Shown: positions 1 through 35,028 of the stretch, in pieces
Numbering within the stretch: the stretch's first letter is position 1
How the letters are laid out: every line of letters starts with the position of its first letter
Virus record (IMG/VR): IMGVR_UViG_3300014613_000007
Coordinates: 1 to 50,192 of that record
Strand: one strand, 5' to 3'
DNA: 50,192 bases
Source of the DNA: a virus
Taxonomy: Duplodnaviria > Caudoviricetes
The notes under the pieces: generated by a model
Database searches by the model: none
Told to the model about the DNA's origin: nothing
What the model saw: the letters and a program-made list of their open reading frames with translations, nothing else
Position numbers and translations under genes: made by a program

Positions 1-123
1 CCAAATCATCTGTGTTCTCGATAAGTGTCGGCATAACTACAAAGATTGTTTTGCCATCAATTTGGGCCAATCCGGCAAATTCTTCGTATATTTCAAGTTT
101 TGTATGTTTTGCTTCGCTCATAA
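1..123. repeat. Terminal direct repeat, copy 1 (identical to 50070-50192); circular assembly overlap
   Basis: ccaaatcatctgtg...gcttcgctcataa occurs at both ends; the ORF 49885-50190 start codon also appears at 119-121, directly after gene 125-445. Confidence 0.95.
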
Positions 124-124
124 T

Positions 125-445
125 TCAGTCCTTTTTTTGTTTTGCCCCACACTCTGAACATGGCATTGTTCCTATTCCTGTTATGCCTATTCTAAACAGT
201 CCTTTAATTTCATCGACAAGCTCTGTGTGTTCCTGTAGGAAGGTTTTTAGGGTTCTTTTGGTACTTTGCCTTAGCTTCTTTGAGATAAGCCCTTCACAGA
301 GGCTTACGACACTGGGATAATAGCCAATGGGGACCAACGTTGTCTTTCCGGCCTTTTTTCCTGTTTCGATAACGTGGACTTCGTTCAGAATGAAATTGTA
401 CGCATCGGAAGTCATTACATAATTGTCCGTTATTTGTATGTTCAT
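125..445 (-). CDS. DUF5405-like phage protein
   Basis: N-terminal 'I.D.YV.TSD.YNFILNE......GK.AG......IGYYP' pattern recalled from this family. Confidence 0.6.
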   Translation of the reverse strand: MNIQITDNYVMTSDAYNFILNEVHVIETGKKAGKTTLVPIGYYPSVVSLCEGLISKKLRQSTKRTLKTFLQEHTELVDEIKGLFRIGITGIGTMPCSECGAKQKKD

Positions 446-476
446 TGTTTGCTCTCAGGGTGTTTTTTAGAAATAT

Positions 477-1379
477 TCATTTTTTCCAATTATCCGCCAG
501 TCTTTCAATTTCCTTGCGGTCTTTTTCTTGTTGTCTTATTTGCTTCCTACGCTTATCGTCTTGCGTATGGCTGCCTACAGATATTGTGATAAGCTCGGTT
601 AAAATACGCGGATCGAGGGCGTCAAGTTCCCACGAATCACCGCCGAATATTTCTTTATATGAATCATATCGGCTATCTGTGGTCTTGGCCGGATTAGGCG
701 GCGGCTGATACTCTTCGATTTGCTCCATTGTCAAGGCAATTCTTTCGACCTGTACCGACGAACCGAATATTTCCAACCTATCCTGTATATCTCGGCTCAT
801 GTCGATTCCTGATGGGTCATGGTCGCCTAAATGTATCAGGAAAGTATCCTGCCTTCTCCTTCTTTTGTGTTCACGGACAATAAAACGCTGAGCAGCTATC
901 CACATTTCCGATTGAGAGACAAAGCCCCGACAAGATAAATACCCCACATCAAGTGGGTCGCAAGCCTTCTCAATCACACCGACAAGGGCATCTTTTTCAA
1001 CCCAAACCTCAACGTAATCGTGCTGGTCGATACGTGTATCAATTGCATAACTTTCGGCGGCGGATTGAAGAACTTCCGCAGGGCTATTCCAGTGCGGCAA
1101 AGACTCATAATTGCGAGTCCTGTCAGTAATAGAATTCCAATCAATCAACCCGGCAAGCCTTGCATCGTTAATTACAGAGCCAAGTCTTTTGTACTCGCCC
1201 TGCCTGTTTGCGATAATATCTCTGGATACGTGTTGATAAAATAATTGGCGCAGGGTTAAATCGTACCCTTGCTCCATATATTCCTCGATTATTGCGTTGG
1301 AACTCTCAATAATTGCGAGGGAACTACGGGAAAACCTTTTTTTAATATAAGCTTTTTTCATTGTCTTCTTGACTTTCAT
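477..1379 (-). CDS. Toprim-domain protein (Topo VI-A/Spo11/JetD-like fold) with N-terminal winged helix
   Basis: TLRQLFY winged-helix motif, Toprim VEVWVEKDAL glutamate, RGF.S, HLGDHDPSG (DxD), WELDAL. Confidence 0.8.
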   Translation of the reverse strand: MKVKKTMKKAYIKKRFSRSSLAIIESSNAIIEEYMEQGYDLTLRQLFYQHVSRDIIANRQGEYKRLGSVINDARLAGLIDWNSITDRTRNYESLPHWNSPAEVLQSAAESYAIDTRIDQHDYVEVWVEKDALVGVIEKACDPLDVGYLSCRGFVSQSEMWIAAQRFIVREHKRRRRQDTFLIHLGDHDPSGIDMSRDIQDRLEIFGSSVQVERIALTMEQIEEYQPPPNPAKTTDSRYDSYKEIFGGDSWELDALDPRILTELITISVGSHTQDDKRRKQIRQQEKDRKEIERLADNWKK

Positions 1380-1389
1380 TATCCAGTTA

Positions 1390-1664
1390 TTGCTTTGCCT
1401 TTGCTTTGCATGGCTCCGCCGCGCTCAGCCTTTGCTCCGCCTTCGCGTTGCATTGCTTCACATAGCCAATGCTGTGCACAGCAGAACTTTGCGATGCAAA
1501 ACCTTGCCTTTGCTTAGCATTGCAAAGCCCCGCCTTAGCTTAGCCACGCTCTGCGCTGCTCTGCCTTCGCACAGCTGAGCATTGCTATGCCTTCGCACAG
1601 CCATACCGCGCAATACTAAGCCCTGCCACGCTTCACCTTCGCTTCGCCGCGCCCCGCCTTCGCA
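1390..1664 (-). ncRNA. Non-coding NGY-NN periodic array (53 units); putative guide RNA of the adjacent Cas7-like protein
   Basis: Minus strand parses without gaps as TGCGAA GGCGG GGCGC GGCGA AGCGAA GGTGA ... GGCAA AGCAA; all 53 units have G at position 2 and C/T at position 3; no minus-strand ORF of 60 aa or more. The repeat is certain, the RNA function is inferred. Confidence 0.75.
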
Positions 1665-1670
1665 TATTAT

Positions 1671-2273
1671 TCACTTTTTAATTCTATAAGAAAATCGGCC
1701 ACACCCACTCGTCCTCCATTGTCCCATGCCGAGCAATGCCCCGTATGCCAGCCATTGCACGATGAACTTTTCGAGATTCTTATTGAGACAAGATACCTCA
1801 ATCCTTAATTTCGTTCTCGCCGGTACGGATTCTGATCTTGCAAGGCATATCCGTTCACCTTTCATCGTCTGACCTCTCAAAGGACGTTCGATGAATTCAG
1901 GTTTTGCTCCTTCGGGTAATTCAAGATATATCTTGCGGGGATTAACAAATATCTGCTTGTCGATGGTCTTTTTATAGAGATATGGAGTTAGACGATATTT
2001 TTTAAGCTCCTCTTGTGTCATTGTGCCGGAATATATCATCTGCTCGCACGCTTCCTTGAAGAAACCTTTGAACTGGTAGTCCCAGAGCATCAATTTGTCG
2101 CCGTCTCTGGCAAAAATAGTGCTTGATCCCTCCAATTCTTCGTCCGGGTGCATTTCCGATTCTTCCTCAGATTGACCCTCTGGATGCTTGGAAATTATAA
2201 AATCTTCGGCTATTTCCTTATTGCCCGAAAGCGTTCCCAATAATGGTTCTGTAAATGTTATCTCAATTTTCAT
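1671..2273 (-). CDS. Solitary RAMP/Cas7-like (Csm3/Csf2-like) protein
   Basis: RAMP motifs in the expected order: IEITFTEPLLG (beta1), LWDYQFKGFFKEA (matches 'ipgssiKG.lR'), RSESVPART.L.IEV, and C-terminal G-rich loop YGALLGMGQWRTSGCGRF; RBS GAAGGGA upstream. Confidence 0.85.
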   Translation of the reverse strand: MKIEITFTEPLLGTLSGNKEIAEDFIISKHPEGQSEEESEMHPDEELEGSSTIFARDGDKLMLWDYQFKGFFKEACEQMIYSGTMTQEELKKYRLTPYLYKKTIDKQIFVNPRKIYLELPEGAKPEFIERPLRGQTMKGERICLARSESVPARTKLRIEVSCLNKNLEKFIVQWLAYGALLGMGQWRTSGCGRFSYRIKK

Positions 2274-2310
2274 TTTTTCCCTTCACTTTCTATATGCGGC
2301 AAGGATGCCA

Positions 2311-2409
2311 TTAACAACTTCTCCACATTTGGCGGAAACCCAAATATACAACGAAAATTATCCAGCCAACGAAAAGAATTCTCAAAATATCAACTAAAGT
2401 TTTTATCAT
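2311..2409 (-). CDS. Small membrane peptide (32 aa, MIKTLVDILRILFVGWIIFVVYLGFRQMWRSC)
   Basis: Translated manually; fills the gap between gene 2418-2795 and the RAMP gene; one hydrophobic helix. Confidence 0.45.
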   Translation of the reverse strand: MIKTLVDILRILFVGWIIFVVYLGFRQMWRSC

Positions 2410-2417
2410 TCCGATCT

Positions 2418-2795
2418 TTACTTATAAGTAGAAAGCAATCGTTCAATACGTTGCTCTTCCGCCAAAATCTTCACTTGTTTCTCCTTTTCCCTAACTTCGC
2501 TTTTTTTTTCTATTTGTTGTTTTCTCTGTTCTACCAAAGCGTTAAAATCTTCTATCCATTTGCCTTGGTACAACCAGCCATATTCCTCTGTCCAACCTGA
2601 ATTGCCAGCAACAATCCCATATATTTCAACAGCGTCAGGTATAACCCAAGGAACATCATCATTTTTAAGAACTACACCTTCTGGCAAAAGCCATATTTGA
2701 AATGTTTGTCCGCGACCATGGCTACTCGGATACAAATACAATCTGCCATGTTGCTCTTTGTCGAATATATTCGCATATACATCTGCGCCTTTCAT
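2418..2795 (-). CDS. Hypothetical protein
   Basis: 125-aa ORF with AAGGAG RBS upstream; charged C-terminal helix. Confidence 0.75.
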   Translation of the reverse strand: MKGADVYANIFDKEQHGRLYLYPSSHGRGQTFQIWLLPEGVVLKNDDVPWVIPDAVEIYGIVAGNSGWTEEYGWLYQGKWIEDFNALVEQRKQQIEKKSEVREKEKQVKILAEEQRIERLLSTYK

Positions 2796-3045
2796 TGGTT
2801 GTTCTCCTTTATCTTAAAAAGCAGCATATCCTCTTTATGTAATTTCAAAAAAAGGTGGGGCGCAGTTGATTTCTTGCCGCGCCCCGCACCTAAATGGAGG
2901 AGGGTGTATGCAAAAAAATTGGCCTGCCCGTTTTGAAGCGCAGTCGCCAGACGGACTTCAAGAAGTGTGGACAGGCCAAGGGTAGATTTAATTTTTTCCG
3001 AGTTGCATTGTCCGTCTGGCATTGTAAATCCTTTCTTAACTTTTG

Positions 3046-3081
3046 CACTATATATATAGTAGGGTCAAGCCCGAAAGTCAA
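3046..3081 (-). promoter_or_regulatory. Leftward promoter-like element TTGAC-N8-TTGAC...TATATATA
   Basis: Minus strand TTGACTTTCGGGCTTGACCCTACTATATATATAG; TTGACT-17-TATATA; near copy at 32094-32124 (+). Confidence 0.6.
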
Positions 3082-3182
3082 ATAAAAAATAAAATGGCTG
3101 TTTTTGGGGCAAAAATGAAGGATATTTTTTCACTATTTTCGATTGGACACTTGGTTAATGCAACTGAGAGGTAAAAAGCCAC

Positions 3183-3347
3183 CTATTTTTTGATCTCTCC
3201 GGTAAACTCAAACGCCTGCCGCAGCTTGTGAACGGCAATCTCTATGTCCTGCACGGCGACATATTTATCAGGTGTATCAATGTGACCGTGCATAGTCATC
3301 TTATGTATCAGGTCGTAAAACTTCTTAATGTGCTTGGCGGGTTTCAT
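3183..3347 (-). CDS. Small hypothetical protein (54 aa, MKPAKHIKKF...)
   Basis: Translated manually; ATGA overlap with the stop of 3344-3697. Confidence 0.55.
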   Translation of the reverse strand: MKPAKHIKKFYDLIHKMTMHGHIDTPDKYVAVQDIEIAVHKLRQAFEFTGEIKK

Positions 3348-3697
3348 GGCGGCAATCTACTCAATATTTCCTTGAAGGCTTTGTTTTGTTCGGTCTGAAT
3401 TGCCTGTTGTGCCATTCTTAAATCATCCATCTTTTCATCTAATTGGTCAATATCCTTTCCCATCCCGATCAAAGTCTCGGTATTAGTTATTATTTTGGGT
3501 CTGATTTCGACCTTTATCTCAGCCCTGGTCTCCTGAATTGCCCCCCTGTTAGTCTCGACGTCCTTAACAACTTCCGCCGCTTTCCATGATGTGTTGAGCA
3601 AAAAAGTAAGGGCCGCAACGAACAATGTAACCAACAATGTCGCTAATGATCCGATAATCACCTTCCTGATTGTGCCGTTTCTTCTTTCTTTCGTCAT
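3344..3697 (-). CDS. Single-TM plus coiled-coil protein (holin-like/lysis accessory candidate)
   Basis: N-terminal TM helix then heptad-like helix; located at the end of the virion module. Confidence 0.5.
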   Translation of the reverse strand: MTKERRNGTIRKVIIGSLATLLVTLFVAALTFLLNTSWKAAEVVKDVETNRGAIQETRAEIKVEIRPKIITNTETLIGMGKDIDQLDEKMDDLRMAQQAIQTEQNKAFKEILSRLPP

Positions 3698-3711
3698 TGC
3701 TTTTTCCTCTG

Positions 3712-5505
3712 CTAATCCATGATTATTTCTTTTATTTCAATCTTTTTGCCTTTTTTCACAGGTGAATAAGTATTAACAAATAATCCATGCTCATCAGCTA
3801 TTATTGATAGAAGTATATTTGCTGAATTTTCATCGTTTATAAGTTCGTAAAAATTTTGAATAGGTAAAGGTTCAAATAATTCTCGTATATCACCTTTAAG
3901 AGATATTTTTTCATCTTTTCTGTATTTATAATGTCCGGCAAGATGAGCCAATACTAAATTTGCCGCTGGTGCTGTTTTGTTTTCAAGATAATCTTCAAGA
4001 ATATCCACGCCCGTCAGTTCGCCGAATTTTCCGGTATTGAGTTTTATAAGCTTGCCAGTAGATGTACTCTTGATATATGAATCCTTATTTACCAGTAAAG
4101 GAACAAGTCTTACTGCTAATCTTGTAAGCGCTGCCGTTCCGCCTGATATATCAAATCTGGTATTACCAATCTTGATTTTGCCAAAATCGGAACTATGAGG
4201 GTCCCATTCTACAGTTTCAGGCCATAAAGCATAAGCAATACCAAGAATAAGTCCCTGGGCTACTACAATATGAAGAAGGTTTTTTGCCGCCTCTTTCTTT
4301 GCAAATTTGCTCATATTCTTATCGAATTTGTGCATTGTCAGCACATCAAGGTCTGCCTTTAGCATTCTCGGAGAAAAGAAAATATTACTAATCAAACCCG
4401 GTGCCTGTCTCTTGGCTCCTATTTCACCCCTTGCAGTCAGAGAATTTACAAGTTTGCCTATACTTTCCAATTCGACTTTATCATTTAAGTCAATATCCGA
4501 TTTCCGAGCGATGTTAAAATAATATTTCGCTGTCTTGTAACGGGCGTAATGGGCCGATGCAGTAAAAGCATTATGAGAAGCCAGGAATGGTTTGCCTAAA
4601 TATGGTATATTTTTATACCAGTCAGTAGGTGCTTCTTCCTCGATAACAGCAGTTGCCACTTTGGCTTTCTTCATCATATCATATTCAGGATCGGATAATA
4701 TTTCTGCCCTTATTTCATCCATGACAGGGACACCTCTGAACGTGTCCCAAATGACTTTATAGGATTTTTTGAAGGTGTCCCACCAGATTTTACCACTTTG
4801 GAAATCGCCTGTTATTCCTTTGAAAAACAAGTTTCGACCCTGTTTGCCTATCCAGCTATTATCAAGTGTTGTTCTCATTTCTCTTGATGTTGCCGCGATG
4901 CCTTTCGCCAGATCGCCTATAAACTTGAAAGGATTGTGAAGATATTCCACAACTCTTTCGGATATAGTTTCATGCTCGGCAATCGCTTTAACTGAAGAAA
5001 CATAATTATCAAAAGTTACTAATGTTCTGCCGTAATCCATTCTTGCTTTAGTCGGTTTACCTTCTTCATCTACAGCTTTTTCTCTGTCATAGAGTTCATC
5101 TTTATCGGCAACTTCTTTGGCAAGAGTTGTTATATTGCCTGCTTCCTCCATTGTAACGGTAGTGCCAAGAACATGAGCCGCCAAATCTTTAAGAAAGACA
5201 TCTTCTGTTTCTGGTGTCAAAACTTCCGACATTTTATTGACCCTGTTTACAAGTCCTCTTTGGGCTTCCGGCGTAATACCTGCCACCTTCTTGGCCCATG
5301 TCACCATACCTGTTTGCTGATTTTTGAGAATCAGTTTGGATTCTAATAAAGTATTAAGCTGAACGGCATTAACTTCTCCAAAATGCTCTGAAAAGAAGTT
5401 TCTTCTTTGCTCAGAGGTCATATCTATCATCTTATCGGGAGAGATAGTGCCGGCCTTAATCATATTCAAAAATTTATCAGCAAGATAAGTTGGCAAACAC
5501 CACAT
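3712..5505 (-). CDS. Internal virion (ejection) protein, C-terminal type
   Basis: 597 aa, helical, with late hydrophobic segment and 'DP.SSDFGKIKIGNTRFD' motif; follows the other internal virion genes. Confidence 0.6.
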   Translation of the reverse strand: MWCLPTYLADKFLNMIKAGTISPDKMIDMTSEQRRNFFSEHFGEVNAVQLNTLLESKLILKNQQTGMVTWAKKVAGITPEAQRGLVNRVNKMSEVLTPETEDVFLKDLAAHVLGTTVTMEEAGNITTLAKEVADKDELYDREKAVDEEGKPTKARMDYGRTLVTFDNYVSSVKAIAEHETISERVVEYLHNPFKFIGDLAKGIAATSREMRTTLDNSWIGKQGRNLFFKGITGDFQSGKIWWDTFKKSYKVIWDTFRGVPVMDEIRAEILSDPEYDMMKKAKVATAVIEEEAPTDWYKNIPYLGKPFLASHNAFTASAHYARYKTAKYYFNIARKSDIDLNDKVELESIGKLVNSLTARGEIGAKRQAPGLISNIFFSPRMLKADLDVLTMHKFDKNMSKFAKKEAAKNLLHIVVAQGLILGIAYALWPETVEWDPHSSDFGKIKIGNTRFDISGGTAALTRLAVRLVPLLVNKDSYIKSTSTGKLIKLNTGKFGELTGVDILEDYLENKTAPAANLVLAHLAGHYKYRKDEKISLKGDIRELFEPLPIQNFYELINDENSANILLSIIADEHGLFVNTYSPVKKGKKIEIKEIIMD

Positions 5506-5522
5506 TTAACACCTCAACAAAC

Positions 5523-7736
5523 TTAGCAGCGGATCGACTCGACGAATTCAGTCCAATTCTGGCGGCGGGTAACAGTCTCTCGAATGACTGACCTTATTTC
5601 TTCCGTCATGCGGGAAGTTTCCCGTTTAATACTCTTTATTTTCTTGCGTTTCTTAACAACTTTTTCTCTGGTCTTTTGAATATCCTGCATGGATTTTACA
5701 GGGTCGGCCAATGCAGTTCTGGTATCTGCCGCCTTGATTTCCTGACCCAATGCACTTAATTCAGCCGGTATGGTAGATTCGGTAGCAAGCCGTCTTAAAG
5801 TTTCTACATCATTATCCTTAATGGCTTTATACTTAACCGCTTCGTACATGCTTGCCGCTCGAAGTCCTGTTGGCGGATTCTCTTTACCCATTGCAATCCG
5901 TTTGGCCTGCTCATAATCCCTGTCAATAATCTCAGTAGCCATTTTTGCCTGCTCGGTCATCTTCATAGTTTCATAAGTCGGAAGCTCGCCGAGATTTTCC
6001 GCTAGATGCTTTTCGACGGCAAGTTCTTCAGTACGTTCCGCCAAACGAGATACCTTTCTTTCAGGTTCTGTAGGCTTGGCTCCCTTTTCCACGGCGGGGG
6101 CTTGCTTAAACACACCGACTTCCAATACATTACTGTCTTTGTCAACAAGCACAAAACCGTCATGCCCCATTTTCTCAAGTTTATCTCTGATATTTTGTGC
6201 TTCAAGATTGTCATATTCCTCTTGAGACACTCCTTTTTCAGCAAGAGCATTCCTTTGTTCCTGTGTAAATCCCACGAATTTTGAAAAATCGCTTTCTGTG
6301 CCAACAAAAGGATTATTAAGATTTACTTCTTGTTGGAGTATCTCACCTTCACCACGCCTATAATGTTCGGCAACATTTTTATCCGGGGTATAATATGTAG
6401 CCTTACCATATATCCCTGCATCTAATGCTCCTTCTGTTGATGTGCCTCTATATAAAGTAGCAGAATAAGGTTTTCCCATCTCCGGCGTAATAGTCACTCC
6501 GGCCTGAGTTTGGCCAACTACGGCCTTGCTGGGGGCTGCAATGGCCTCTGTGGGGGGTGCTTCGGCAGCAATAGGCTTGGCAAATACCTCTACTCCAACT
6601 GCTTTTTTCCCTTTAATGGCAGAAACCGCCATATCGAAACCACCTCTTATTGCAACAGGGCCACCAGCAGAAGCACCGCCAACCCACGCATTTTCCGGTA
6701 TGGCTTTTATACCCTCATTGAGAGCTTTTATTGCTGCCTCCTCTATGCCCATTCCTTTTGTGGTTTCAAGTCCGAAGACTTCCAGAAATCTTTGATTAAA
6801 TCCGGTAATCCCCTCTTGCGTGGCGTTTTCAAGAATAACACCCAAAGCTTCCCTAAGACTGAATCCCTCTTTTACACCTTTGAATATTTTGGGTAAAACG
6901 AGCATTTCTCCGCCAATTTCAGCAACTTCAGATAAGTTACCAATAACATTGGCCTTCATTATCGAAGCACCGCCCTCTAATTGGGTTTGAAAAGCTGAAC
7001 CACCTTCCATTTCACCCAAAAGAGCAAGTGCCACGGTCGGATCACCGGTCAATAATGTAATCCCCAAAGCTGCCGCCATAGAAGGAACGCCTGATTGAGT
7101 CACCAACCGCATTGCTTTTGTAATAGGCGCGTTTTTGATAATTTCTCGGTCTTGAGTTTCGGCCAGTTTTCTTTGTTCCTCCTGAAATATTGTACCGGCA
7201 ATATGGGGAAGTCTCGTTATAAGACCAAATGCCTCCGCTAATGTACCCATCGGCCAGTCTTTTGTCATTGGACGAATCATTCCGGGGATGTTCGGTAATT
7301 CTTCGCGTTTCATTGGCTTAACCGGCTCGAATTGATGCTTTACCATTTCATCGGGAAATATTCCCCCACCTGAAAGCATCATAGCTCTTCTCTTAATCGC
7401 AAACATCGTAGAGGCGGCAAGACCGATTGTGCCTATCTTTATATTCTCCGGCGTCTCATATAGGGCTTTTTCTATATCGGACATAAGATCAAGTTTTTCA
7501 GCCTGCTTTTTTAACTCCGGTTCCATGTCAAAAGCCATTTCCGGGGGAATACCGTATTGTTGACTATAGTAGAGACTATTCTCCGTTCGCTCACGAAGTT
7601 CCTTGGATAATTCAAAATTCGGCAAATCGGGAAATTCGGGACTCAGACCGCTTCCGTATCGAGGACTAAGTTCAGGTATGTCACTCAATTTAACAGGTCC
7701 TTGTACTTCAGGAATTTCACTGAGCTTTATTGGCAT
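5523..7736 (-). CDS. Internal virion (ejection) protein with an embedded ADP-ribosyltransferase-like domain
   Basis: Gly/Ala-rich membrane-like segment typical of ejection proteins; LYRG...GIYGKATYYT...A.HY...NLNNPF...GHDG...EVGVF at about 6100-6465. Confidence 0.6.
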   Translation of the reverse strand: MPIKLSEIPEVQGPVKLSDIPELSPRYGSGLSPEFPDLPNFELSKELRERTENSLYYSQQYGIPPEMAFDMEPELKKQAEKLDLMSDIEKALYETPENIKIGTIGLAASTMFAIKRRAMMLSGGGIFPDEMVKHQFEPVKPMKREELPNIPGMIRPMTKDWPMGTLAEAFGLITRLPHIAGTIFQEEQRKLAETQDREIIKNAPITKAMRLVTQSGVPSMAAALGITLLTGDPTVALALLGEMEGGSAFQTQLEGGASIMKANVIGNLSEVAEIGGEMLVLPKIFKGVKEGFSLREALGVILENATQEGITGFNQRFLEVFGLETTKGMGIEEAAIKALNEGIKAIPENAWVGGASAGGPVAIRGGFDMAVSAIKGKKAVGVEVFAKPIAAEAPPTEAIAAPSKAVVGQTQAGVTITPEMGKPYSATLYRGTSTEGALDAGIYGKATYYTPDKNVAEHYRRGEGEILQQEVNLNNPFVGTESDFSKFVGFTQEQRNALAEKGVSQEEYDNLEAQNIRDKLEKMGHDGFVLVDKDSNVLEVGVFKQAPAVEKGAKPTEPERKVSRLAERTEELAVEKHLAENLGELPTYETMKMTEQAKMATEIIDRDYEQAKRIAMGKENPPTGLRAASMYEAVKYKAIKDNDVETLRRLATESTIPAELSALGQEIKAADTRTALADPVKSMQDIQKTREKVVKKRKKIKSIKRETSRMTEEIRSVIRETVTRRQNWTEFVESIRC

Positions 7737-31477: not shown

Positions 31478-32093
31478 GTTTAATCAGATGTCCTTAGAGG
31501 TCAAGAGGATTAGATAGAATGGCTTTTAGCTCTGTTGTTAAACAGGAAAAAATGCCTAACTATCAGATTTCGCAATTATATCACCGCCAACTAATTAAAT
31601 TATGTCCTCGTCGGCCTGTCGGACTATCGTTAATGGTCGGATGGACAAGTATAGCGACCAGGCTATGCTATTTAGCCGCACTTGTGCCTTTTTTAATAGC
31701 GCTCCCGATAGAGTACCGTCCGAGCTTTCTATCGGTTGTGGAGTCGTCAAGTCCCAGACGTTGCTCCCGTCTTTAGTGATACAACTGCTTATATCTTTTG
31801 CCCTGATTTGCCTACCGGAATCCCCTCGGCAAATAGCGCGTAAAAAAACCGGCAAGGCTCGGCAATTTATCACTAAAGACCGAACCCGCCGGATTACTCC
31901 ATTAAGATTATCTTTGCTTCCATGCTGCATAGTGTTAACCCATCGGCATTTTAACTATGTTTTGATTACACATTTCTATAATTCTCAATATTTTTTCACT
32001 CACCAAATGTCCGATCGCAGAATATTCCAAGAAAAATAATATTTTTATCTCGTTTGCCTATATAGACTTACAACGTTTTTCTAAGATTTCCGC

Positions 32094-32124
32094 TTGACTT
32101 TTCGGCTTGACTTGCGTATATATA
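32094..32124 (+). promoter_or_regulatory. Rightward promoter-like element TTGAC-N8-TTGAC...TATATATA
   Basis: TTGACTTTTCGGCTTGACTTGCGTATATATA; heads the only plus-strand gene block; twin of 3046-3081. Confidence 0.65.
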
Positions 32125-32160
32125 AGGTGGCAACAATAACTTTTTTGAAAGGGCACGACC

Positions 32161-32337
32161 ATGGCAAATATATCTGAATCAAGCAAAGCATTATCTTCAT
32201 GGGCCGCCAAATTCCTTTCCGAAAATTCTCCTAAACCTAAAAGACGAACAAGAAGATTATCTCTTGCCGAAGCGGAACAGGCCGCTAAAGTCGAGCGAAT
32301 TAGAAAGATGGTTTATGGCCATTACCAAAAACTGTAA
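32161..32337 (+). CDS. Small early protein (58 aa, MANISESSKALSSW...)
   Basis: Translated manually; GAAAGGG RBS after the promoter. Confidence 0.6.
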   Translation: MANISESSKALSSWAAKFLSENSPKPKRRTRRLSLAEAEQAAKVERIRKMVYGHYQKL

Positions 32338-32370
32338 ACAATGATAACCAATTTTGAGAGGACACTGACT

Positions 32371-32541
32371 ATGGAAACTGCACAAGAAATTATCGAAGCC
32401 AAAACAATTCTTTACACATCAGATGAGAATAACAGATTAACCGAAGTATTCAAAGGCGAATTTGCAGAAGCTATTGAATTACTTGAAACTCATCCCACCG
32501 AATATCTTCTTGGCTTTGAAGGATGTGAACAAATATTTTAA
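32371..32541 (+). CDS. Small acidic early protein
   Basis: METAQEII start follows GAGAGGA. Confidence 0.6.
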   Translation: METAQEIIEAKTILYTSDENNRLTEVFKGEFAEAIELLETHPTEYLLGFEGCEQIF

Positions 32542-32684
32542 GCCCGCAGGCGATGGCCGCCCTCCGACGGCCTCAGCCTATGAGCTTGGACACGACCCAA
32601 CACGAGAAACAACAGCCCCAACGCCGGGCAAATCACCTGGTCGTGTCCGCTCGGCGGCGGGGCTTTTATTGAAAGGATAGGAAA

Positions 32685-33239
32685 ATGTTAGCATTCGAAG
32701 AAACAGGCAAATATATAAGTGAAAGACATGCAGAAGCAGGAGCTGCGGGCAAATTGACTGCTGGTAATGTTGCGGCTATTCTCAACCGTAAATTCAAACC
32801 AACGCCAAAAATCAAGGCCAAAGAATTGAAAGACTTTGCCGACGAGTGGCATCACTCCGGCTTTTACAAAGGCACACGTGGCAATACTATGGGCAGGACT
32901 TATTTTTTCTCACCTTCCGTCGATTTTGAATTGCTCTATAAGAAAGTCTGCGAGTCTCGTTCATACACCACTGATGTAGCAGCAGAGCCAGATGTTGAGC
33001 GTTACTTCTTTTCTGCCGGATTTGAAAAACTCAGTCGGCGTAGCAAGTGGGAGAAAAAGTGGAGGGTGTATGCAAAATTTGAAGCTATTGTATGCAAGTC
33101 TTCAATCCAGTTCTCGAAAAAAACAGAGATAAGCAAAGAAGATTATGAACTACTAAAGGGATTTGAAAATTACGACTTGAAAGCTTACGAAACAGTTGGA
33201 GAATTCAAAAATAGAATGCTTAAAAAAGAGGTGGCATAA
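32685..33239 (+). CDS. Hypothetical early protein
   Basis: 184 aa with a conserved-looking EWHHSG motif; GAAAGGATAGGAAA leader. Confidence 0.75.
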   Translation: MLAFEETGKYISERHAEAGAAGKLTAGNVAAILNRKFKPTPKIKAKELKDFADEWHHSGFYKGTRGNTMGRTYFFSPSVDFELLYKKVCESRSYTTDVAAEPDVERYFFSAGFEKLSRRSKWEKKWRVYAKFEAIVCKSSIQFSKKTEISKEDYELLKGFENYDLKAYETVGEFKNRMLKKEVA

Positions 33240-33499
33240 TGGGATTGTCGTTTATAGACAAATGGCTTGTGGCTGAGGGATGCGACGATGAAGGTACAAA
33301 TAGTGGTCGTTGGTATATCATACATACACAATATCCGAGATTTGTAATTGAGATTTGTGACCGTGATGATGGTGGCTACGAATCGGGAGAATCGGAAGTA
33401 TTTGACGATTGCCTTGATGCAGCTATATTCACCAGATTATCGCGCGAAGCCGGAGAAATCTTCGCATCATACGATAGAGATTTGCTTGAAGAATCTTAA
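33239..33499 (+). CDS. Acidic hypothetical protein
   Basis: TAATG coupling; YIIHTQYPRF motif. Confidence 0.7.
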   Translation: MGLSFIDKWLVAEGCDDEGTNSGRWYIIHTQYPRFVIEICDRDDGGYESGESEVFDDCLDAAIFTRLSREAGEIFASYDRDLLEES

Positions 33500-33546
33500 G
33501 TTTATTCTAATTTATAAAATGAAATTTATATTGAAAGGGTAGGAAA

Positions 33547-33825
33547 ATGTTGACTGAATCTAAAATTGAAGAACTGAAAGTCGAATTTGTTGAATATCTT
33601 GAAGAAGAACAAGGTATCGTTTGCACCGAAGATGATATAGTTCGCACCGCCGATACAGTACAAGGCTTCATTGATGCCTGCCGCGAATACCAAAGCATTG
33701 ACACTGATACATTTAATGGCAGGACCGTAACAATCATCAAAGGAAGCCAACGGCACAAAGGCGAACGCCGCAAAGATTTGTATATCTTTGATGTCGAAGA
33801 ACATGTGCGTTTGGTTTTGGCATAG
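33547..33825 (+). CDS. Acidic hypothetical early protein
   Basis: GAAAGGGTAGGAAA leader. Confidence 0.75.
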   Translation: MLTESKIEELKVEFVEYLEEEQGIVCTEDDIVRTADTVQGFIDACREYQSIDTDTFNGRTVTIIKGSQRHKGERRKDLYIFDVEEHVRLVLA

Positions 33826-33885
33826 TTTTTTTTACTCTGCCCCCTTGGCTTGTAGCCGGGGCTTTTATTCGGAAAGATTAGGAAA

Positions 33886-34128
33886 ATTGCAACCAATATA
33901 GAGATCATCAAAACTGTGGAAAAAGCAATCGCAAACGCGGAAAAAACCGGCGACAACTGGGCCGATATAATAGATATTGCCCTCACTGAAATAGGCGTGG
34001 GAGTGGACGCAGAAGCCTCGAGATCAGCCGACATAAATGGATATGGCCCGATATGTGTACTGGGCGATGGTCGGGAAATCTGGCAGGCCGAAGATACAAA
34101 AGAGATAGAAATATTGCCGGTGTTATAG
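33886..34128 (+). CDS. Acidic hypothetical protein, possibly ATT-initiated
   Basis: Leader GAAAGATTAGGAAA is followed by ATT, in frame with ORF 33916-34128. Confidence 0.55.
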   Translation: MATNIEIIKTVEKAIANAEKTGDNWADIIDIALTEIGVGVDAEASRSADINGYGPICVLGDGREIWQAEDTKEIEILPVL

Positions 34129-34190
34129 TGCATCGCTCCGAGATCATCGCTCCTGCGGGGCTTTTTATTTTGAAAGGAAGGAAGTGAATT

Positions 34191-34328
34191 ATGAGATATT
34201 ATGAAGAAAAACAAGCAGAACACGAAGAAATGGCCGACTATTTGTTCTGGCTGGTGGTATTGGCTGTCTGTGCCGCGATGGTTTGGGCTGGCGTCGAAAT
34301 TGTTAAGTTCTTGCTGCCCTCCGGGTAG
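34191..34328 (+). CDS. Small membrane protein (45 aa, MRYYEEKQ...LFWLVVLAVCAAMVWAG...)
   Basis: Translated manually; GAAAGGAAGGAA leader. Confidence 0.6.
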   Translation: MRYYEEKQAEHEEMADYLFWLVVLAVCAAMVWAGVEIVKFLLPSG

Positions 34329-34384
34329 TGTCGGGCGGCGGCGTGCAGGCTGGAAATGATACTTTTACTGAAAGGGTTGGAAAA

Positions 34385-34678
34385 ATGAAACTATTTAAGG
34401 CAACTGGAAACAATACCACGCAACGTATTTATCTCAAGGGTGATAAGCAGGCCGAACAAGAGCCGGAAGAGTTTTATATACACTTTCCAGGCGGCTCAAT
34501 AGGCGTCTGCCGATGTGATGATGGTAGTTATTGGGCGCACTTATGCCGAAAAGGCAAAGCTGTTGGCTTCGATGATGCTCGTGTAGATTGCCGAGAGCTT
34601 CACACAGGCGAAATGAATATTGGAGACTTAGCAAGGCCGGACTGTTATCATGTCGCGGTCAAAGTGTGCAAAGCTTAA
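34385..34678 (+). CDS. Hypothetical early protein
   Basis: MKLFKA start follows GAAAGGGTTGGAAA; FPGG...V.R..DG.YW.H motif. Confidence 0.7.
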   Translation: MKLFKATGNNTTQRIYLKGDKQAEQEPEEFYIHFPGGSIGVCRCDDGSYWAHLCRKGKAVGFDDARVDCRELHTGEMNIGDLARPDCYHVAVKVCKA

Positions 34679-34762
34679 CCCACCTTTCCCGCTGCCCTCC
34701 GGGTTGCGAATAGGCGGCGGCGCGTAGGCTGTAAACAATAACTTTTCTCGAAAGGGTAGGAA

Positions 34763-34999
34763 ATGAGTGTTAAATTAACAAGTTTCCAAATAGACAAAAT
34801 GAAATTAGCAAAAAAAGGGTTTTGTTTCGATTCCGATCCTTCGACTTGGAATTATTCTTCGGAACGGAATGAAATGGAACGGCTCGTAAAACGAAGCTTA
34901 ATGGTGAAACTCAAAAATCATCCAGGCGATAAGCATGGATTTTATGCCTTGACCGTTAAAGGTCGAGCCGCCCTCGCTCTGGCGGCGAAAGAAGAATAG
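34763..34999 (+). CDS. Small winged-helix-like protein
   Basis: L..R.L...Y.LT.KGR wing motif; GAAAGGGTAGGAA leader. Confidence 0.6.
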   Translation: MSVKLTSFQIDKMKLAKKGFCFDSDPSTWNYSSERNEMERLVKRSLMVKLKNHPGDKHGFYALTVKGRAALALAAKEE

Positions 35000-35028
35000 C
35001 TCGCAAATATTCGAGCTACGGCCGGTAC

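Follow-up and report, generated by a model that had tools for sequence, protein, structure and literature searches.

A Cas7-like gene and an adjoining hexamer-punctuated pentamer array as a very probable VIPR locus in a podovirus-like phage genome

We analyzed a 50,192-nt stretch of DNA, hereafter the window, which covers the whole of the IMG/VR virus record IMGVR_UViG_3300014613_000007, a complete 50.2-kb podovirus-like phage genome with direct terminal repeats. The genome carries a GP7-type capsid protein, a T7-like connector, and tail and internal-virion PHROGs. An array of short repeats (1390-1664, minus strand) fills the gap between two minus-strand genes, and the minus strand is the sense strand of both. 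The gene upstream of the array (1671-2273, minus strand; stop codon TGA at 1671-1673), named vipr here, encodes a 200-aa single-domain Cas7-like RAMP. A 6-nt linker separates the array from the vipr stop codon, and 10 nt lie between the array end and the ATG of the next gene. We hold with high confidence that this locus is a Viral Interference Programmable Repeat (VIPR). According to the text of the preprint that first described it in 2026 (bioRxiv 10.64898/2026.04.26.720920), VIPR is an RNA-guided DNA silencer related to CRISPR, made of a minimal phage RAMP of ~20 kDa (Vipr) and of vrRNAs of pentamer repeats. The protein holds a GGY scaffold, the NN bases pair with double-stranded DNA, every third target base is skipped, and competing phages and satellites are silenced.

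Read 5' to 3' on the minus strand, from 1664 to 1390, the 275 nt of the array parse without remainder into 53 units, 43 pentamers of the form N-G-Y-N-N and 10 hexamers. This exact parse confirmed the composition given in the initial annotation, which had been made from the sequence alone, including the hexamer tails (GAA five times, AAA three times, TAA and ATT once each) and the successive pentamer runs (3, 8, 4, 5, 4, 7, 4, 1, 5 and 2 units). Steps of 5 nt account for 43 of the 53, with an overall period of 5/6 nt, and no other chain of at least eight GC anchors at the array spacings is present in the 50,192 nt. The first array unit is itself a hexamer, TGCGAA (1659-1664), which is followed by GGC and is conserved in two related loci, L096 and L102. 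The parse places the second hexamer, AGCGAA, at 1638-1643, followed by GGT, and the next eight, each followed by GGC, at 1592-1597 (TGCGAA), 1566-1571 (TGCGAA), 1535-1540 (AGCTAA), 1509-1514 (AGCAAA), 1468-1473 (AGCATT, the sole hexamer without AA), 1442-1447 (CGCGAA), 1431-1436 (AGCAAA) and 1400-1405 (AGCAAA), all on the minus strand. As first noticed, the unit after every hexamer starts with GGY (10/10; GGC nine times and GGT once). The proposed GCNAAGGY boundary stands for nine of the ten hexamers and fails for the remaining one, GCATTGGC. G was the next base after all 10 hexamers, compared to 10/42 pentamers (Fisher p=1.2e-5).

Adjacent units are never identical in the array (0/52), in support of the view that it did not arise by simple slippage. 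The series of NN dinucleotides AT-AA-TC-TG does occur at both 1572-1591 and 1479-1498, with a different first triplet base in all four units. This recurrence had been offered as evidence and is not significant, since a repeated four-dinucleotide word was found in 9.9% of 20,000 NN shuffles and in 8.5% when the hexamers were kept fixed. No ORF (open reading frame) spans the array; Rfam at gathering thresholds gave no family in the window, no tRNA genes were found, and blastn of window positions 1-6000 against phage records gave no match. When RNA folding was compared to shuffles, the sense strand of the array had a z of -3.8 and the antisense strand a z of -0.05; we attribute the low sense-strand value to the periodic GC, as a putative cause.

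The 200-aa ORF is without Pfam or PHROG family, and none of its ~199 homologues, all labelled merely 'hypothetical protein', has a Pfam domain; more than 488 relatives were confirmed in IMG/VR. A structure model built from a 32-sequence alignment reached a pLDDT of 86.9, and its top structural matches were all Cas7-family RAMP chains, the closest solved folds being CRISPR Cas7 backbones. The same resemblance could point, instead of a guide system, to an RNA and protein that act together as a decoy or sponge, for example by imitating Cas7 and its RNA so as to poison host type III, VII or I CRISPR complexes, and phages are known to carry RNA anti-CRISPRs. However, a decoy should imitate an invariant CRISPR repeat of 6-nt periodicity, whereas the interior of the array is hypervariable and its period is 5 nt, and published homologous systems act as guides. 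We therefore consider a decoy highly improbable. The genomic context is viral and non-CRISPR, as for VIPR: no cas families were found among the 43 ORFs scanned, and the tandem-repeat scan of this complete phage genome gave no CRISPR-like repeats.

The link between gene and array was then counted over the 95 loci whose vipr homologue is followed by 300 nt or more of sequence. A strict-parse array lay directly downstream of the gene in 40 of the 95, and in 26 of the 27 loci at 46% protein identity or more, the exception (L025) having a relaxed-parse chain only. The array is present in L012 and L013 (85% identity) and, with mostly G-T anchors, in L014 (50%). Among the more distant gut-phage loci inspected, L052 and L046 had degenerate arrays and L028 showed none downstream. 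The longest arrays reach 160-180 units (L022, L074). In L017, a single vipr gene stands between two same-strand arrays, one of 158 units upstream (2103-2917) and one of 101 units downstream (3623-4142).

On the other side of the window array, the downstream gene (477-1379, minus strand) encodes 300 aa assigned to PHROG 6247 'DNA topoisomerase' (E 6.7e-104), with no Pfam family, and beyond it lies a DUF5405 'replication initiation' protein (125-445, minus strand). An array adjoining these PHROGs, with a 5-bp period equal to half a helical turn, might be a DNA-level element such as replication-origin iterons, a packaging site or a protein-binding centromere. Yet the array goes with the vipr gene and not with the replication genes: its position is immediately 3' of vipr homologues, the loci tabulated for unit composition show an excess of purines on the vipr sense strand, and its interior is hypervariable between near-identical phages. 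Of all the explanations considered, this one seems to us the hardest to credit. The topoisomerase-like gene was also rejected as an accessory gene of the system, as 11 homologous loci have no array and it follows vipr only in L102.

Both ends of the array are conserved. The 5' junction (1650-1685, minus strand), which comprises the vipr end, the stop codon, the 6-nt linker, the first hexamer and ~2 units, is common to L096, and its leader and first hexamer are also found in L102. The 3' end (1387-1404, minus strand), GCAAAGGCAAAGCAA then TAA, is common to L096, L102 and L012, with similar ends in L024 and L020. By contrast, the interior is hypervariable. L096 encodes a 96%-identical protein, and its array shares with the window array the leader, the first hexamer with ~2 units and the last 15 nt, whereas the interiors do not align; for L102 (83%-identical protein), the array ends are common with the window and the interiors again do not align. 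Between the vipr stop and the array of L096 (2320-2395) lies what looks like the final ~35 nt of a further vipr gene together with the leader. This remnant suggests that the array and the vipr 3' end may be exchanged together as a recombination cassette.

The initial annotation had proposed that the NN bases carry the information and that NGY is the scaffold. The first part agrees with the published VIPR mechanism and with the hypervariable interior. The second part had to be reduced, as position 1 is as variable as NN: over 986 interior pentamers, the information content was 0.04 bit at position 1, 0.12 at position 4 and 0.01 at position 5, and the fixed part of the unit is G-Y only, Y being C or T in the unit logo. 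On sequence grounds, we assign the window array to a GY-NNN branch of VIPR, in which N-G-Y-N-N is the published YNNNG frame. Stop codons in N4-N5-N1 were not depleted (46 observed for 52.2 ± 5.0 expected), in a wobble-alignment test of position 1. In the 23 loci with at least 25 pentamers, the GC of positions 1, 4 and 5 rose with genome GC in a similar way (slopes of 0.78, 0.70 and 0.92); only the Y position, occupied by C or T, tracked genome GC steeply, with a slope of 1.78.

A comparison with the Vipr protein of Escherichia phage SUSP1 offers a rationale for this relaxed scaffold. According to the text of its structural description (bioRxiv 10.64898/2026.04.26.720927), G1 is read by H17 and D177, G2 is held by R138 and W178, and Y3 partly by R179. 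These published residue numbers fit the SUSP1 ORF at 13 of the 14 positions checked, T175 of the paper being V in the record. The hhalign comparison pairs SUSP1 D177/W178/R179 with Q185/W186/R187 of the window protein, all three of which are invariant in the 32-sequence alignment, and SUSP1 H17 was aligned by eye to T14. From these pairings we infer that the readers of G2 and Y3 are kept (W186, R187) and that those of G1 are changed (T14, Q185), matching the loss of the fixed first G. In the clade of the window only G-Y is fixed, which fits a protein that has T14 and Q185 where SUSP1 has the G1-reading H17 and D177.

The hexamer grammar was quantified over 45 loci and 2216 units, to which all hexamer statistics below refer unless otherwise stated. 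Hexamers made up 425 of these units (19.2%), for 18.9% in the window array, and their commonest tails were AAA (118), GAA (52), AAT (51) and AAC (28). The next unit began with G after 374 of 406 hexamers, compared to 515 of 1721 pentamers. The hexamer context logo is (A)GC-AAA/GGC, and the variability of the flanking units is not below that of other units. The interior runs between hexamers held 4-6 pentamers in 231 of 336 cases, with a mode of 5, when ~68 were expected from a geometric distribution of the same mean; among the 29 loci with at least four runs, 26 had half or more of their runs in this range. Blocks are thus 26-36 nt long, ~6 units. These results also bear on the possibility that the locus is an eroded or non-functional VIPR remnant whose hexamers are indel scars, as the degenerate arrays of many gut-phage relatives could suggest. 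In the window, however, the parse is perfect (53/53 anchors), the hexamer fraction equals the family mean, and the vipr ORF is intact with every invariant residue present, and the sequence and spacing of hexamers are conserved over the 45 loci. An eroded remnant is therefore very unlikely.

The initial annotation had suggested hexamers as guide boundaries or processing sites and had called for an alignment of related arrays. In two close pairs of loci, whole hexamer-bounded segments differ: the arrays of L037 and L043 differ by the replacement of exactly two hexamer-bounded blocks, and that of L104 has, compared to L103, two additional copies of a 36-nt block, plus a one-unit deletion. Block replacement and duplication, together with the conserved motif and the peaked spacing, bring comparative support to the suggestion. 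Between distant arrays, block sharing was not detected, exact matches of at least 18 nt being centred on the hexamer motif and not on block interiors.

A different reading accepts a VIPR array and denies that hexamers are guide boundaries. The whole 275-nt RNA would be one continuous filament, and the extra base, about once per helical turn, would serve only to ease register strain or as a hinge. The ~6-unit spacing is indeed the six-subunit periodicity of the published binary filament, and there are no tails or visible processing signals between blocks. Nevertheless, the lag-1 correlation of successive run lengths was 0.265, for a null of 0.228 ± 0.04. There is no compensating anticorrelation between successive blocks and thus no long-range phase is kept; a long-range helical phasing of the hexamers was rejected on this correlation. 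Moreover, the hexamer sequence (AAA/GGC) is more conserved than a bare extra base would require, arrays change by whole blocks, and SUSP1 tracts of 11-14 units need no hexamer. We regard this continuous filament as unlikely. The results on spacing, motif and block-wise change together lead us to favor blocks as independent content units over a once-per-turn spacer, and we lean, by a little, towards blocks being units of guide content, and probably of processing.

Overall, the locus is very probably an intact VIPR locus, with a Cas7-like Vipr, a same-strand vrRNA array and hexamers as block boundaries. The array would be transcribed on the vipr strand as guide RNA (vrRNA) and form a ribonucleoprotein in which, by analogy with the SUSP1 system, one Vipr protomer would cover each 5-nt unit and hold the fixed G-Y. 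The variable bases would be displayed and would pair, with gaps, to the double-stranded DNA of rival phages or mobile elements, leading to their silencing. The hexamers (GC-AAA/GGC) would divide a continuous, tail-less array into blocks of ~26-36 nt and may be sites of processing, each block corresponding to ~6 protomers, about one turn of the published Vipr filament. A more specific version, which we put forward tentatively and consider rather doubtful, would make the array a string of one-turn mini-guides of ~5 pentamers and a hexamer (~31 nt, 6 protomers). Each would be cut or capped at AAA/GGC and act as an independent guide of 10-18 specified bases, ~10 guides per 275 nt. Block length would follow from the helical repeat of the filament, and with first-G reading lost through the Asp to Gln change in the G-loop, each unit would gain a third programmable base. 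Neither such a guide format nor such a rule for measuring length is given in the text of the VIPR preprints.

Several results weigh against the VIPR reading set out above, hexamer blocks included. Blocks of 4-7 units specify just 8-14 NN bases, below the 9-16 units of the characterized vrRNAs; the interior runs of the window are less regular than those of the family (4-6 pentamers in 5/9); block-wise change is known from two locus pairs only; and no 3' tail or pseudoknot was found at the array. No neighboring gene family is shared within the clade of the window, and a conserved accessory (vap) gene, typical of VIPR operons without being universal, is lacking there. The hhalign alignment with SUSP1 Vipr was limited to 24 G-loop columns, with a probability of 25.6% (P=7e-4), and the profile of the 200-aa protein found nothing in the SUSP1 genome. 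Tblastn of the protein against phage records did not reach SUSP1 either. A groundwater metatranscriptome held 22% of the sampled words, with contigs only on 2071-2408 and 3833-4000 and none on the array; such contigs cannot show RNA ends.

Target searches also weigh against it. When 12-unit windows from the 45 loci were compared to 1.39 Mb on both strands with skips of 0-3, the best matches were at the level of shuffled arrays. A hexamer was counted in this search as one extra base or none, and the self-match control recovered 1272 of 1272 windows. The 8-unit run of the window, searched in IMG/VR as an xNN pattern, gave seven stretches, four of them distinct, at chance level. At offsets 0-7, none can be prolonged into a neighboring block (4 of 8 bases at best), and the skipped base is at a codon wobble position in only one of the four. 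The pattern scan of IMG/VR with a 12-unit run from L100 gave 0 stretches. These IMG/VR scans took exact patterns and miss mismatched targets, when matches of at least 80% were accepted in the VIPR paper.

Around the locus, a sigma-70-like promoter match (2357-2385, minus strand; 10/12 consensus positions), 84 nt upstream of the vipr start codon, is a weak candidate, as the scan of the region gave 9 such sites for 9.4 expected from shuffles. Further upstream of the vipr operon, positions 2800-3180 are ORF-poor, with a GC-rich inverted repeat at ~2857-2890. A terminator-like hairpin is present at the array end in L100 (1520-1565), and a long conserved GC-rich hairpin lies ~90-140 nt past the array in L103 and L104; neither has a counterpart in the window. 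Elsewhere in the window, at 32000-35000, we observed a change in the sign of the GC skew and plus-strand ORFs (for example 32685-33239) in an otherwise minus-strand-coded genome, which may correspond to a divergent module or an origin region.

Since the VIPR class is already published (2026), what we add is modest: a quantified hexamer-block grammar, the match between blocks and the filament repeat, and a residue rationale for the relaxed scaffold. Going by the text of the VIPR preprints, characterization has so far been limited to the SUSP1-type format, GGYNN with a 3' tail, and the window provides a clean example, in a complete genome, of a different and abundant format. If blocks are functional guides, guide length in this branch would be set by filament geometry, and three bases of each unit may be programmable there. 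The T14 and Q185 substitutions are a directly testable explanation of the relaxed scaffold. For annotation, callers that accept pentamers only will split such arrays at each hexamer.

Among known systems, class 1 CRISPR Cas7 backbones (Csm3, Cmr4, type VII Cas7) differ by their 6-nt steps on a contiguous spacer, their CRISPR repeats and their multi-gene cas operons, none of which is found here. CRISPR-Cas type III and type VII were rejected as candidates on the lack of cas genes and CRISPR repeats and on the predominant 5-nt steps. TIGR-Tas, which combines arrays of 18-nt period with a Tas effector, was also set aside, given the 5/6-nt period and the Cas7-family RAMP matches of the structure model, a distinction made without Tas protein comparison. 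Tas proteins carry a Nop domain. One such effector, FpTasA, appears in the text of a genomic language-model study (bioRxiv 10.64898/2026.10.21.760802). The non-canonical VIPR-like clusters of this study resemble the window locus by a 5-nt entropy period, a Vipr-like fold and one degenerate triplet position (for example WGT/NN, TGH/NN); its text gives motif classes and, unlike the present analysis, does not describe a block structure.

Within VIPR, the text of the first preprint (bioRxiv 10.64898/2026.04.26.720920) distinguishes seven types, as well as stand-alone vipr genes. A VIPR locus carries, next to the gene, four or more tandem pentamer units in which a scaffold is fixed and other bases are hypervariable; 53 units are found here. 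Type II has discrete GGYNN vrRNAs of 9-16 units with conserved, structured 3' tails, whereas the window array is continuous and tail-less. The SUSP1 locus (NC_028808.2; Vipr YP_009199429.1), the characterized exemplar of type II, has its GGYNN units in four distinct tracts of 11-14, none interrupted and each with leader and tail. The window shares with this type II system a small RAMP, a G-x-G-x-W-R...G-R-F G-loop, 5-nt units and an array on the strand of the gene. One protomer per 5-nt unit, as published there, is proposed here by analogy. In contrast to SUSP1, which has 3' pseudoknot tails and a vap1 gene, the window has neither a tail nor a conserved neighbor gene, its 53 N-G-Y-N-N units form a single continuous array in which hexamers recur after 1-8 pentamers, and the G1-reading H17 and D177 are T14 and Q185 in its protein. 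With the same parser, 3 of the 4 SUSP1 tracts (L132, 27000-29800) end in a 6-nt step then GG, just before the tail, in a parse that is ambiguous; a +1 step at the guide end may be general in VIPR. The window array belongs to the same kind of system but is built on another architecture.

The closest likeness is with the alternative YNNNG repeats, named in the methods of the first preprint, and with its 'staggered' arrays, in which the next vrRNA begins where the previous one ends (bioRxiv 10.64898/2026.04.26.720920). As far as the text of this preprint goes, the window locus shares with them a lone Cas7-like RAMP, an adjoining pentamer array, the fixed G..Y, the lack of a CRISPR array and tail-less abutting guides. 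The periodicity of the Vipr filament, six subunits in the binary and five in the ternary form according to the text of the structural preprint (bioRxiv 10.64898/2026.04.26.720927), is close to the block size of ~6 units. The hexamers go unmentioned in the text of the VIPR preprints, and so do their ~6-unit spacing and the AAA/GGC consensus in that of the first, as distinct from its Fig. S17, Fig. S18 and data S4; hexamer blocks may already appear in the supplementary figures of the first preprint as 'staggered arrays'.
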